From: Balanoglossus misakiensis
Lineage: Eukaryota; Animalia; Hemichordata
Direction: 5' to 3'
DNA: 64,000 bases
NCBI GenBank assembly: GCA_040954595.2
Contig: CM082598.2
Span: 8,137,097 to 8,201,096 of the forward strand
Part shown: positions 31,797 through 46,599 of the stretch, one piece after another
Position numbering within the stretch: position 1 is the stretch's first letter
How the letters are laid out: each line of letters starts with the position of its first letter
The notes under the pieces: model-generated
Database searches by the model: none
What the model saw: the letters and a program-made list of their open reading frames with translations, nothing else
Told to the model about the DNA's origin: nothing
Position numbers and translations under genes: made by a program

Positions 31797-32817
31797 TATG
31801 GAAAGCCATAACTGCCTTAAGTGAACTGAACTCATGTTCTCTTGTGTATTTAACATGTTGTCTTGTACATTTAATATGTTGTCTTGTGTATTTAACATGT
31901 TTTCTTGTGCATTAAACATGTTTTCTTGTGCATTTCATATATGGTCCTGTGCATTTAACATGTTGTCTTGTGCATTTCTATATGGTCCTGCGCATTTAAC
32001 ATGTTGTCTTGTGCATTTTATATTGTCTTGTCCATTTAACATGTTGTCTTGTGCATTCATATACGCTGTCTTGTACATTTAACATGTTGTCCTGTGCATT
32101 TCTATATGTTGTCTTGTCCATTCATATACGTTGTCTTGTGCATTTCTATATGTTGTCTTGTGCATTTCTATATGTTTTCGTGTGACTTTAATATGTTGTC
32201 CTGTTCATTTCTATATGTTGTCTTGTCCATTCATATACGCTGTCTTGTACATTTAACATGTTGTCCTGTGCATTTCTATATGTTGTCTTGTCCATTCATA
32301 TACGTTGTCTTGTGCATTTCTATATGTTGTCTTGTGCATTTCTATATGTTTTCGTGTGACTTTAATATGTTGTCCTGTTCATTTCTATATGTTGTCTTGT
32401 CCATTTATGTACGTTGTCTTGTGCATTTCTATATGTTGTCTTGTGCATTTCTATATGTTGTCTTGTGCATTTCTATATGTTGTCGTGTGACTTTAATATG
32501 TTGTCCTGTTCATTTCTATATGTTGTCTTGTTTATTTATATACGTTGTCTTGTGCATTTCTATATGTTGTCTTGTCCATTCATATATGTTGTGGTGTGCC
32601 TTTAACATGTTGTCCTGTTCATTTCTATATGTTGTCTTGTCCATTCATATACGTTGTCTTGTGCATTTCTATATGTTGTCTTGTGCATTTCTATATGTTT
32701 TCGTGTGACTTTAATATGTTGTCCTGTTCATTTCTATATGTTGTCTTGTCAATTTATATATGTTGTCTTGTCCATTCATATTGGTTGTCTTGTCCATTCA
32801 TATACGTTGTCTTGTGC
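31797..32817. repeat. Left TIR built of 21-22-bp tandem repeats
   Basis: More than 40 variants of TGTTGTCTTGTGCATTTCTATA; inverse of 45697-46599. Confidence 0.92.
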
Positions 32818-32929
32818 TTGTGGTGTTTTATAATGATTATCAAAGTATATACCATAATGCAACAGTATGAGCATGCTCAGTAGATTTTTACATAATAACA
32901 CGCAAGAAAGATAGCGTTGAAGAGGTATC

Positions 32930-34288
32930 ATGGCATCTATGAGAGACATTCTAGAAAGTCTACAAATGGGGAATCTCAGTGACAACTTTGAGAGTGAAAA
33001 GGTAACACCAGAATTAGTGTGTAAACTTTCTGTGCCAGAACTGGAGGAGCTTGGTCTTCAAAACAGGGCAGACATGATGGCATTACGTATTGCGTGCACC
33101 ACACGTGGAGGGGAAACTCCAACAAAAGCCCATGGATTATATGGTGGTGCTCCAGAATTTGTCATTCCCAAATGCATCTTAGAACATTTTTTTGATGAAG
33201 GATTCACAGTTACTGAAGTGGCATCTATGTTATCTGTTTCGGAGCGTACTATTTACCGCAGAATGATGCATTATGGGCTGAGTAAGATGAATTTCTCTGA
33301 TATCTCTGATGGTGACCTGGATGATAATGTACAGCAACTGACAGTGGAATTCCCTTATTGTGGTGAAAATATGATCAAGTATATGTTGCAAGAAAAGGGA
33401 ATTAAAGTCCAACGGATGAGGCTCCGTGATAGTATCCACAGGGTAGATGCTGAGGGTGTTAATTCCAGAAGAAAAGGTCGTTTACAAAGACGTGTCTACA
33501 ATGTGAAGGGACCAAATCACTTATGGCATATTGATACCAACCATAAGTTAATTAGATGGCATTTTGTGATATTTGGGGGCATTGATGGCTTCAGTAGACT
33601 ACCTGTCATCCTATCCTGCAGCAACAACAATAAGGCACCCACATTGCTGGAATACTTCAAGTCCGGTGTTGAGAATTTTGGTCTTCCCAGTCGTGTAAGG
33701 TCTGACATGGGTCGTGAAAATATACTGATAGCTGAGTATATGATTGAGAGACGGGGACCCAACAGGGGAAGCATGATTACAGGCAAAAGTGTGCATAATC
33801 AGAGGATTGAGCGATTATGGAAAGATGTGTATGAAGGTGTTCTGAGCCTTTACTACCAACTATTTTACTTCATGGAAGAAAGAGGTGTACTTGACCCACT
33901 GAATGTACTGCACTTTGCAGCTCTTCACTATGTGTTCATGCCTAAAATAAATGAAAAGTTAGAAATCTGGAGGAAAGCTTGGGCTCGACATCGTATGCGT
34001 ACAACAAAGACATCACCTCTGCGTTTGTGGATATCTGGACAGATGAATGATCCAGTTGGTATTGATGACTCTGACATTGGTTTGTATGGAGTAGAGGGTG
34101 TCATCAATGATGATTCAGAGGAGACAGACTCGCGACCAATCATCGAGCCACCATCATTTCAAATGGGTCAACAGTGTATGGATGCACTATCTCAGCACAT
34201 ATTACCAAACTGGACATCAGACAACTATGGCATTGACATTTATAATATAGCAGTTCAAATCATACAGGACAATGCTGATCAAAATTAG
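32930..34288 (+). CDS. IS3EU-type DDE transposase: SAM-like N-terminus, HTH, integrase core (452 aa, intact)
   Basis: Motifs [63 protein letters not shown]. Uninterrupted ORF. Confidence 0.92.
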
Positions 34289-42934: not shown

Positions 42935-43220
42935 ATACTGTGTCGTGATTTGCCAGAATCCGTCACGTGATAGGAAAAGAGTATCAACTATGAATCCCTA
43001 GGTAAATAGCAGAAAAAATATAAACCGGTCACGTGACCAACGTGAGTGAGGTTTATTATAAAACACCTATGGCCTGACGTCCGTGAAGTTGGCCTCATCC
43101 TCAGCTTGAAAAGTCACGCGAATATGAGGATGAGGATGAGGCCAACTTCACGAATGCTGGGCCTGGGCTATATTCGGGCCGTTGCAGCCGTTTTTACCCC
43201 CTAGTGACTGTGAGTTACCA
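42935..43220. repeat. Intronic hairpin repeat (Crypton-like fragment)
   Basis: Perfect inverted repeat CGTGAAGTTGGCCTCATCCTCA / TGAGGATGAGGCCAACTTCACG (43082-43152). Confidence 0.55.
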
Positions 43221-45696
43221 TTTTTTTAAATTATTATTATTATCATTATTTAAACGGTGTATTCTCAAGGATGTTGAGAGAAGGGGGGAATGTCCCCTCT
43301 TAGTCTAAAATTATTGGGGGATTTGGTCAAAGTAGGGGGGAATCATGATTTGCATAATTTATGTTAATTAGGTAAATTTCAAGGAATAACAATTTTGAAC
43401 GTTATCTTACTAACTGCCTTCATTCCAGCAACTTATGAAGTGCTAGGCTTGCCAGCGTAGGTAGTAGGTACTGTGCAATCTCGTGTGACCTGAGCTACGT
43501 AGTGATAGCGAGACAGAATTACAACATTTTACATGTTAACATGTGACATCTAAACAGTTACAGATTTTTTCTACTTTAAATTAGTAGATTTTGCAGAGGA
43601 AGACACCAGCTTGCATAACTTTCAGGGCATGTAATTTAAAAAAATGCTGGAGAGCTGAAAATAACTCTCCTGAAATTAATTACACAAGTGGTAGGAGAGT
43701 GACTAACTGCTCCCCTGGCAAGGAGAGTGAAATGAATAAAATAAATGCAACTGGAAACACAAGTGTCTTTCTTTAAAACTATACCTGGGAAAAATTTTCT
43801 TGTTTGATTTTAAAAGTTTCAGTTTTTTTAGCTGTCAAAATATTATATTGTGAAACTATTAATAGTGAAATAAATTGAAGTGGTATATTCCTTCAGATTT
43901 CTGCCTACACTTCCCCATCTGTGGCTAGGCACACTACTCAAATAAATAGTCACTGTACATATTGAATGACTTTCCTTCCAAACATATTGAATGACTTTCC
44001 TTCCAAAGTAAGAAAACAGGTCTTGGAAAACTGATACATTCTTGATAATCGCCATGGCATGAATGCAGTTCTTTTAATTTGCATAAAATTGTTACATTCT
44101 GCCAACCCAATTTCAAATGTCTCCATAACAACAAGATCACTTGAGTGTGTGCTCTAAACTTAGACAGTGTCCAGACAGAGCTCTTTGGCTGTTCCAACAA
44201 TTGCACACTATAGCCCTTGGAGCTAAATTACACGTAATTGAATGTGAAAGTCATTTACAACATAGTATTTGGGGGTGGGAAGTTAAAATGTATAGGCCAG
44301 CACGCAGTGTTATCGGCCGTTTTCCCAGTGTTTTGACTGACAGTGCATGCTACGAGGCTTGACGCACATGTACTGGCCGGGTGGGCTGCTCACGAAGGGG
44401 CGATTGTCGCCCCCTGAACTTGTTACAAGGGGCGCTTCAAGTGGGGGGAATCGCGCAATCGCGCGTCCCGGAGAATTAGAAAACACCAGAATCATACCCC
44501 TCAGCAATTTCGATCCCCGTTAGAAACAGAACAAGATGATTAAAACTTACATGATCCTGTTCAGCATTTTCAGTCAGATCAACAACCATATTGTTCGGAA
44601 TTTCTTGCGGCGTATCTCGATGTTCAATAGGTCCGAGAGGAAGCTCTGGGTCTTCATCCGACTCCGATTGAAGAACTGGCAAACACCAGTCGATATGACT
44701 GCGTAATTTGTCAATCGTGAACTCTGTGTTGCAACCTCGGCACTTTTCTTTCAGACTCGTCCCATGGCTGGTTTGTTCTGTTTCTGTGACGTTCAGATTT
44801 TTTGAATAGGGCGCAAGTATAATTTGGCTTGAGAGCCGACATGGCGCTTTAGCTCCTCGACGCTCCAAGAACATGTTACCGTTTGCAAATTTCGGCAGTT
44901 GCCAGTGCAATGCATGATTTCGAAACCTCCGCATTCACTTAATTGTGGATATTCCGCCTTGATTTTGTTGGCAACATCTTCCTCATCATCGTGGCAGAAA
45001 AAAATCATCTTACGTTCCCCAAGTCCCGCCTTGTTAAGAACTAGCTTTTCAGCAACTGTTGGAATTCTCTGTTGAAGGCGATCAGCCACACACAAGACAC
45101 GGACTGTCCATGTCCGGGCCTTTTTGGCGGTTTTCTTACCTCGACCGACAGTACCAGACGGGGCACCAGCCCGCCCACGCCCACCATTGCTTCTGGCGGG
45201 GATAAATAACATGTCTCTTTCAGAGCGTACGGTCTCAGAGAGTCTTCCATAGTTGCTAGAAGATGCAGATGCTTGATCCATGTCTTCACGGGCGACAGCA
45301 CGTGAACACTTCTTTCACAGATCATGCCGGTGTCCCATGGTCTCTACCCCCAATCTTATGAGTTCACGATCAGTGAGCGATTCTACAGTTTCCGGGGAAA
45401 TGCGTTCTTGCAAAAAATTTGGTATCAGAGTTGACAATGACATAGAACGCAAAATTTCCTCCATGATGATGATGACAGGATACAATGTCCCTGTGCGAAC
45501 ACGCGTGCTTGTCTTAGTGCTACAGATTTTCCCTCTCTTTTTCACCGGATGTACATTGTAAATGTATCAAATATTTTGGGAGACTGCAGGCCACAGTCTA
45601 TTTATAGCTGTGGAAACAAAACTGTTCCGCCAGGGGGAGGATACCGCCCTCCCGGAACAGCTTGATCTTCTTCTAATGAAGTTAAATGCACCACAC

Positions 45697-46599
45697 AACA
45701 TGTACAAAACCACAGGACAACATATAGAAATGCACAAGACAATGTATATGAATGGACAAGACAACATATAGAAACGAACAGGACAACATGTTAAAGGCAC
45801 ACGACAACATATAGAAATGCACAAGACAATGTATATGAATGGACAAGACAACATATAGAAATGAACAGGAAAACATGTTAAAGGCATACCACAACATATA
45901 GAAATGCACAAGACAATGTCTAGGAATGGACAAGACAACCAATATGAATGGACAAGACAACGTATACAAATGGACAAGACAACATATAGAAATGCACAGG
46001 AAAACATGTTAAAGGCACACCACAACATATATGAAAGGACAAGACAACATATAGAAATGAACAGGACAACATATTAAAGTCACACGACAACATATAGAAA
46101 TGCACAAGACAACATATAGAAATGCACAAGACAACATATATAAATGGACAAGACAACATATAAAAATGAACAGGACAACATAATAAAGTCACACGACAAC
46201 ATATAGAAATGCACAAGACAACATATAGAAATGCACAAGACAACGTATGTGAATGGACAAGACAACATATAGAAATGCACAGGACAACATGTTAAATGTA
46301 CAAGACAGCGTATATGAATGCACAAGACAACATGTTAAATGGACAGGACAGCATACATAAATGCACAAGAAAACATGTTAAATGCACAAGACAATATAAA
46401 ATGCACAAGACAACATGTTAAATGCGCAGGACCATATATAAAATGCACAAGACAACATGTTAAATGCGCAGGACCATATATGAAATGCACAAGAAAACAT
46501 GTTAAATGCACAAGAAAACATGTTAAATGTACAAGACTACATGTTAAATGCACAAGAGAACATGAGTTCAGTTCACTTAAGGCAGTTATGGCTTCCATA
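45697..46599. repeat. Right TIR built of 21-22-bp tandem repeats
   Basis: Inverse of the left array, with a different repeat count. Confidence 0.92.

Follow-up and report, generated by a model that had tools for sequence, protein, structure and literature searches.

Excerpts of PMC10045372 and PMC12730594 give TA..TA (TAYGG) ends and a 6-bp target-site duplication as the marks of IS3EU/GingerRoot transposons, to which available portions of these sources and of PMC6839031 add an integrase-type DDE core; the structure and function of IS3EU are called largely unexplored in an excerpt of PMC11934779. A second gene is already on record for the group (excerpt of PMC10853768), and the rust-fungus families, as far as the available text goes, have an oppositely oriented alpha-kinase gene. 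In the literature compared, including a search of the PMC10045372 supplement in the portion available, neither a SAM nor a HECT domain is named for IS3EU/GingerRoot. RAG1, according to an excerpt of PMC13107022, is a transposase-derived recombinase coupled to E3 activity that modifies RAG1 itself and histones. An element with the ends, duplication and core of IS3EU/GingerRoot occupies 14.8 kb (positions 31797-46599) of a 64,000-nucleotide stretch of DNA from the hemichordate Balanoglossus misakiensis (GenBank assembly GCA_040954595.2, contig CM082598.2, positions 8,137,097 to 8,201,096, forward strand), which as a whole is called the window here. It contains an open transposase gene with a predicted SAM domain at its N-terminus and, facing it, a partner gene that begins with a SAM domain and ends in a HECT-derived domain. 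We favour, tentatively, the reading that it is a decayed copy of an IS3EU family whose partner protein docks the end-helix of its SAM domain on the mid-loop of the transposase SAM domain and passes ubiquitin from its cysteine to the transposase or nearby proteins. Harbinger two-gene transposons encode a Myb-like DNA-binding accessory protein that binds the transposase, and the stable post-integration complex of MuA is actively removed by a host unfoldase, ClpX; unlike what we propose for the window element, neither is known to involve ubiquitin chemistry encoded by the element itself. The pair proposed here resembles RAG1 in its coupling to E3 activity, but whereas the excerpt of PMC13107022 describes a RING fused to a Transib-type enzyme, the window has a separate HECT-type gene that would be joined to the transposase through SAM domains.

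That the element is an IS3EU transposon with TAYGG ends and 6-bp duplications had been claimed in an earlier note made from the letters of the window, and this is borne out. The element starts with TATGG, the inverse of TATGG closes it at 46599, GTTATC stands on both sides, and its DDE core is assigned to the IS3EU lineage by Pfam PF24764 (rva_4). TAYGG..CCRTA termini, inverted repeats longer than 30 bp and a 6-bp duplication are thus all present (coordinates of all features are collected in Table 1). The core is identical with that of Repbase IS3EU-1_SK at 82 of 107 positions as counted by eye (PMC10045372 supplement, available portion), and IS3EU-1_SK probably belongs to the same SAM-bearing clade. 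The integrase zinc-finger family (HHCC) is not among the 16 Pfam rows obtained, no separate search having been made for it. The earlier note was also right in placing two convergent genes inside ends defined by the duplication; their starts, which it put just inside the terminal inverted repeats, lie about 1.1 kb from the tips, directly inside subterminal arrays of about 1 kb, which are likely to be binding sites of the transposase. The perfect duplication, together with the open transposase frame, suggests a recent insertion. An assembly chimera was considered and rejected on the grounds of the perfect duplication and of a flanking frame that is open across the empty site. The site itself lies in an open reading frame (ORF) for a tyrosine recombinase (window 31247-31796 and 46606-46915; Phage_integrase E 1.4e-6, DUF3504 weak), which over the empty site stays open as far as codon 180 and which we take to be a probably decayed Crypton-like element.

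The SAM domain of the transposase is only faintly visible to sequence search: its N-terminus scores 16.9 bits against Pfam SAM_1 (E 0.009), under the cut-off of 23. Modelled from a 97-row alignment, however, residues 1-66 (counted, like all transposase residues here, from the methionine at 32939) form five helices, at 2-7, 11-19, 24-27, 32-37 and 43-57, with a mean predicted local distance difference test score (pLDDT) of 84, and the best match of this model among 48,161 chains is the SAM domain of tankyrase (Z 8.5, root-mean-square deviation (rmsd) 2.4, 59 residues aligned), with SAM domains filling the first 15 rows of the search. Foldseek returned the SAM family too, but no E below 0.001 for either this model or that of a partner homolog. 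An Atlas lookup with the transposase N-terminus gave a best score of 0.76 and was uninformative. The N-terminus is thus predicted to adopt a SAM fold. Both N-termini quoted in the earlier note are present at the locus, and a chance likeness to a SAM pattern was rejected.

A transposase-SAM profile built from 96 of the 120 best homologs and the window sequence matches 111 of these 120, and the remaining nine are N-terminally short models; because the homologs were chosen by likeness to the query, this proportion is no estimate of frequency. The named organisms that carry it are one coral and a number of bivalves. Among viral contigs there were 68 pattern matches and no relatives. A quick tree was built from 78 cores, after five exact duplicates had been removed from the 83 collected, and contains 13 of the 120 proteins; in this tree, rooted at the midpoint only, every one of the 24 SAM rows lies on a single branch with a Shimodaira-Hasegawa-like approximate likelihood ratio (SH-aLRT) of 99, so that SAM transposases form a single clade. 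This branch also holds locus L012, which like L062 is cut at the N-terminus and therefore cannot be scored for SAM. A separate branch of AT-rich transposases is formed by L035, L037, L039, L045, L059, L061, L064, L067 and L078.

The partner gene consists of six minus-strand exons with GT-AG at every junction and matching phases, about 659 codons in all, which encode in order a SAM domain, a basic linker, a ubiquitin-like domain, a C2HC finger, an acidic linker and the HECT-derived domain with the motif PTANTC. Its SAM domain stands well clear of the Pfam threshold (SAM_1 30.1 bits as against a cut-off of 23, E 6.5e-7; SAM_2 above cut-off too), and the model of a homolog again finds the tankyrase SAM as its best match (Z 10.2, rmsd 2.0, 63 residues aligned). 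The ubiquitin-like domain is predicted from homolog P0176, whose residues 143-263 are modelled with a pLDDT of about 90 or more and resemble the ubiquitin-like domain of TBK1 (Z 7.5) and Ufm1 (Z 7.0); a length-restricted search with this piece found one protein. The C2HC finger, being UBZ-like, may bind ubiquitin. Altogether 985 relatives of the partner were found, with full-length models from bivalves, from a coral and from Ptychodera flava, a hemichordate. In the window copy the gene is broken three times: codon 50 is a stop, a frameshift of one base lies near 44798, and 1444 bp have been inserted into exon 6. Contigs assembled from two DNA runs, X1 and X2, which represent one sample and possibly the window's own source, lack the frameshift in both cases, and the stop is absent from X1, X2 having no cover there; an unbroken exon 1 therefore exists in the organism. 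The nested element with CCCTTACGAA ends resembles animal elements of the EnSpm/CACTA type. Palindromic repeat copies resembling miniature inverted-repeat transposable elements occur at window 35079-35420, 37440-37660 and 39787-39830 and have very high depth in the run contigs, a depth that was not taken as copy number.

The two SAM N-termini had been reported as alike, and their families are indeed alike: hhalign aligns the two profiles over 67 columns (probability 97.4%, E 1e-11), the transposase-SAM profile gives 37.7 bits on the window partner SAM as compared to 30.1 bits for Pfam SAM_1, and the partner-SAM profile matches 110 of the 120 transposase homologs with a median of 36 bits. Since each profile recognises the other SAM better than Pfam does, a common origin of both domains within the element is suggested. 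In SAM-SAM contacts a basic end-helix binds an acidic mid-loop and a glycine is required, as described in excerpts of PMC4980433 and PMC5993539 on the tankyrase polymer and the EphA2-SHIP2 heterodimers; the window pair has the same features, although those are host signalling proteins whose binding was measured, whereas here the contact is deduced from conservation. The features are divided between the two proteins. Gly44 at the start of helix 5 is found in 64/64 partners and 2/97 transposases, and a basic residue at position 46 in 59/64 partners and 0/97 transposases, the partners being basic at 48 too. Asp25 of the acidic mid-loop, conversely, is found in 90/97 transposases and 11/65 partners, and its position aligns with D1055 of tankyrase, mutation of which breaks the SAM polymer. 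Judged by the helix-5 glycine and the basic end-helix, the partner SAM is thus of the self-polymerising kind and the transposase SAM is not. This pattern fits a directional contact in which the partner end-helix would dock on the transposase mid-loop; being directional, such a contact would let the transposase cap a dimer or chain of partner SAM domains without polymerising itself. The transposase SAM would have taken the place of an acidic helical segment that earlier formed the N-terminus, and its probable source is the SAM of the partner.

Several observations weigh against this contact. In the mid-loop of the partner SAM, too, acidic residues are conserved (23, 32, 34), so that it could pair with itself alone. 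In the last helix of the transposase SAM R50, C53 and Y56/F56 are invariant or nearly so, which points to a further interface that our model does not explain. Both SAM domains within one element were seen only in the window, and no other locus of the SAM clade reached the 5' end of the partner. Finally, the L043 family (L043, L044, L046, L065), whose element starts with TATGG, combines a canonical, spliceable partner SAM with a transposase that has none; a partner SAM can hence occur without a transposase SAM, and strict co-presence of SAM on both genes was rejected.

Could the two SAM domains then act separately? The partner SAM would in this case oligomerise the ligase, while the transposase SAM, perhaps a copy of it, would have been reused for transposase assembly or for binding of a host SAM protein or of the subterminal repeats. 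The L043 family, the fact that the partner combines a basic end-helix with an acidic mid-loop and the invariant C-terminal residues peculiar to the transposase SAM all speak for this, as does the fold search with the transposase SAM, which at Z of about 6 lists helix-hairpin-helix-like nucleic-acid-associated domains (Rad51, NusA and DisA-type). However, the transposase has kept the acidic contact position of tankyrase while losing the complementary glycine, as would fit an acceptor for another SAM, and SAM transposases and shortened HECT domains share one clade. We therefore regard separate roles as somewhat unlikely, though as an explanation to be reckoned with. The simplest history would be that SAM was first present on the ligase, serving self-assembly, and was later copied to the transposase in one clade, in which the HECT domain also shrank.

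The earlier note had taken the partner for a HECT E3 ligase, and this is correct for the C-lobe with its cysteine and for the N-lobe's large subdomain but not for the segment that in canonical ligases carries the E2 site. With canonical HECT E3s (NEDD4, Itch, AREL1, E6AP) the partner shares the GGPR-type N-lobe motif, the C-lobe and the catalytic cysteine motif, yet it is about 90 residues shorter between the GGPR and cysteine motifs, and solved HECT domains exceed its own by about 90 residues. Their spacing is 181-194 residues in 15/15 stored proteins with both motifs (194 in the window), as opposed to 286 in AREL1 and 279 in L025, and in 15/15 complete models of this clade the domain is about 70-90 residues short at the small (E2-binding) subdomain, where a block of 72 residues is missing from 7/7 SAM-type rows aligned with the full-size HECT of L025. 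Since window exon 4 and L003 cross the deletion point without an intron, the block is not a missed exon. It begins where L025 weakly aligns with ESIDPEFYNSL of Itch, which we take to be the start of the small, E2-binding N-lobe subdomain. In the available portion of PMC3077247 the small subdomain hosts the E2-binding site, while another passage assigns E2 binding to the large one. The large subdomain is present in the partner, as its GGPR region aligns with AREL1, RSP5 and NEDD4 and UBE3C matches model residues 547-653 with Z 6.4. A canonical HECT ligase was thus rejected, and because the block of the small subdomain is absent we call the domain HECT-derived. SAM domains are found in 12 of the 15 shortened-HECT proteins, and the other three are N-terminally short, two of them falling in a 90% cluster with SAM-bearing proteins. 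Atlas neighbours are HECT clusters, mostly molluscan.

But how would a HECT protein without this segment be charged? With the segment of the canonical E2 site missing, ligase activity of the partner is uncertain, and the proposal that it brings ubiquitination to the transpososome would require a non-canonical charging route. The cysteine is kept in 15/15 complete models and in 17/17 C-lobes listed (from molluscs, a coral and a hemichordate), and this invariance argues that the partner still takes up ubiquitin. As the usual E2-binding subdomain is gone, E2-ubiquitin would have to be captured by another route, most simply through the C2HC finger and the ubiquitin-like domain; ubiquitin would then move from the partner cysteine onto the transposase or adjacent proteins. 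The likeliest purpose would be the tagging of DNA-bound transposase so that it is removed once strand transfer is over and the post-integration complex is stripped, with its dose limited as well. The same finger and ubiquitin-like domain, together with the missing block and the short motif spacing, would likewise suit a partner that docks but is no working ligase, acting instead as a ubiquitin-binding adaptor, as a shield or decoy against host ubiquitination of the transposase or as a recruiter of an unfolding machine. This we consider unlikely, because the cysteine motif is invariant in molluscs, coral and hemichordate, whereas its loss is what one would expect of a dead enzyme.

Transposase and partner recur together. 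A convergent match to the shortened-HECT profile lies downstream of the transposase in 22/93 loci, and in 18 of the 45 loci with at least 1.5 kb of downstream sequence, so that the HECT gene is recurrent in related elements. L037 and L057 were excluded from this count, their HECT matches lying upstream of the transposase; the HECT-like ORFs at L037 are likely those of another element. Among the 17 SAM-transposase loci a HECT piece was reached in six, namely all five with at least 1.2 kb downstream and L004, and five of these six pieces score 97-274 bits on the shortened-HECT profile, as compared to at most 45 for SAM-less loci; at L019 the HECT is in two pieces of 59 and 24 bits. Six complete SAM-less elements from five families have TATGGAA ends and 6-bp duplications, with no SAM match on either gene. 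Over 12 families the identities of transposase core and C-lobe covary (rho 0.61, reached in 3/5000 permutations). On the other side, the covariation is in part the SAM/non-SAM split itself, and 27 of the 45 loci with at least 1.5 kb downstream have no HECT-profile match, although inspection by eye reveals HECT motifs in six of these, which belong to the L043 family. A single assembly is the source of many long loci, which therefore represent separate families, not separate hosts. No adjacency by locus tag was seen between named SAM transposases and SAM-HECT models among those listed. Thirteen contig loci (L081-L093) in bacterial or archaeal metagenome-assembled genomes have no SAM match, one of them (L082) having a HECT partner; their IS3EU transposases are probably host DNA binned into prokaryote genomes. 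That the ligase gene is a captured passenger without a role in transposition would agree with its broken state beside an open transposase and with the capture of gene fragments by GingerRoot elements (excerpt of PMC6839031), but is very improbable given that it has one position and one orientation throughout 22 loci, which come from many samples, and in six complete elements with TATGG ends and 6-bp duplications, and given its covariation with the transposase and its unbroken exon 1 in the run contigs.

The SAM-less IS3EU elements (L015, L025, L040, L047, L055, L069, L075) share with the window element the termini, the convergent layout, the ubiquitin-like domain and a HECT domain with its cysteine. 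They differ in that their transposases, like others outside the SAM clade, have, where the window has its SAM, some 75 acidic residues at the start that are probably helical, and in that their HECT is of full size (that of L025 spans positions 11-305 of the 306 in Pfam HECT), whereas that of the window is shortened. The SAM-less partners of L040, L055, L069 and L075 seemingly start with an exon for one short amphipathic helix, and this helix could complete the helical segment of the transposase and so provide an alternative dock. A wider and rather doubtful extension of the docking model would be that a clade of animal IS3EU has a minimal HECT without the E2-binding subdomain, which would be charged with ubiquitin in a novel way and which the directional SAM-SAM contact would either target to the element's transposase or let that transposase activate, that the SAM-less clades use an interchangeable dock of a helix on a helical bundle, and that a dock between transposase and ligase is general to the superfamily.

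We single out three parts: the transposase SAM domain, the polar pair of SAM domains and a HECT domain that lacks the usual E2 site. No description of a SAM on an IS3EU transposase, of a HECT partner or of the shortened HECT was found in the IS3EU, GingerRoot, HECT-transposon, HECT-SAM and transposon-E3 literature, while an account of the second ORF may be contained in Repbase, Kojima 2019 and the GingerRoot or TET/JBP supplements. Little is known of how eukaryotic cut-and-paste transposases are removed from DNA and kept at low dose, and a transposon that would supply both a ubiquitin enzyme and a dedicated dock for it makes the question testable using two small domains. Ubiquitin transfer by a HECT whose cysteine is retained in corals, in molluscs and in a hemichordate, but which lacks the customary E2 site, would be a novel arrangement, and such a protein would be a compact ligase scaffold. 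In addition, transposon genes probably account for many of the models named "SAM domain-containing" or "HECT" in the genomes of molluscs, corals and hemichordates.

Table 1. Features of the IS3EU element in window coordinates, followed by two entries from related loci in the coordinates of those loci
Feature	Position	Strand	Evidence or remark
Left target-site duplication GTTATC	31791..31796	.	identical to 46600-46605
Left terminal inverted repeat, begins TATGG	31797..31860	+	61/64 columns of the outer 64 bp agree with right end
Left subterminal array, 22-bp unit, 45.6 copies	31834..32817	+	repeat analysis
Intact IS3EU transposase ORF (SAM, helix-turn-helix, DD34E core)	32930..34288	+	open frame, Pfam
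Predicted transposase SAM, residues 1-57 from Met at 32939	32939..33109	+	acidic mid-loop kept, end-helix glycine absent
Integrase-type catalytic core, D199/D256/E291	33494..34048	+	Pfam PF24764 E 6.9e-77
Partner exon 6, 3' part: HECT C-lobe and stop	35722..35930	-	catalytic Cys (PTANTC) codon 35838-35836; Pfam HECT E 6e-4
Nested non-coding insertion in exon 6, 1444 bp, CCCTTACGAA termini	35933..37376	.	2-bp duplication (CT)
Partner exon 6, 5' part	37377..37427	-	
Partner exon 5 (HECT N-lobe end)	38855..39032	-	
Partner exon 4, intronless across canonical small-subdomain site	39377..39522	-	profile positions 388-437 covered by a single piece
Partner exon 3 (GGPRKEF motif)	40937..41066	-	
Partner exon 2 (lead-in of helices, then first part of HECT N-lobe)	42301..42651	-	
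Partner exon 1 (SAM, basic linker, ubiquitin-like domain, C2HC finger)	44551..45464	-	stop 45317-45315; frameshift near 44798
C2HC zinc finger, UBZ-like	44683..44757	-	zf_C2HC_14 E 7.7e-6, above cut-off; zf_UBZ E 0.058
Predicted ubiquitin-like (beta-grasp) domain	44799..45110	-	homolog model
Partner SAM up to premature stop, canonical end-helix motif	45318..45464	-	Pfam SAM_1 E 6.5e-7
Right subterminal array, 22-bp unit, 40.8 copies, inverted relative to left	45684..46563	-	repeat analysis
Right terminal inverted repeat	46537..46599	-	end comparison
Right target-site duplication GTTATC	46600..46605	.	copy of 31791-31796
L043 partner SAM, canonical, two in-phase exons	L043 19058-18945 + 17621-17499	minus	E 1.9e-9; upstream of full-size HECT gene
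Putative amphipathic-helix first exons of SAM-less partners	L040 7109-6957; L069 5697-5515; L075 15056-14919; L055 19283-18927		

Outside the element the window holds further coding remains. A fragment of a Pao/BEL retrotransposon lies at 13589-14290 (Peptidase_A17 E 8e-18). At 16926-20164 an integrase-like ORF precedes a proline-rich one that has a weak match to Ulp1 protease (E 7e-4) and a Cys-rich end; this is possibly a Ginger- or Zisupton-like element. An intronless BTB-BACK-PHR gene of the BTBD1/2/6-like type, split across two overlapping frames, is located at 25563-27048, and at 50154-52323 and 52299-56675 pieces of Mutator-like (MULE/SWIM) transposase adjoin a large inverted array with units of about 170 bp.

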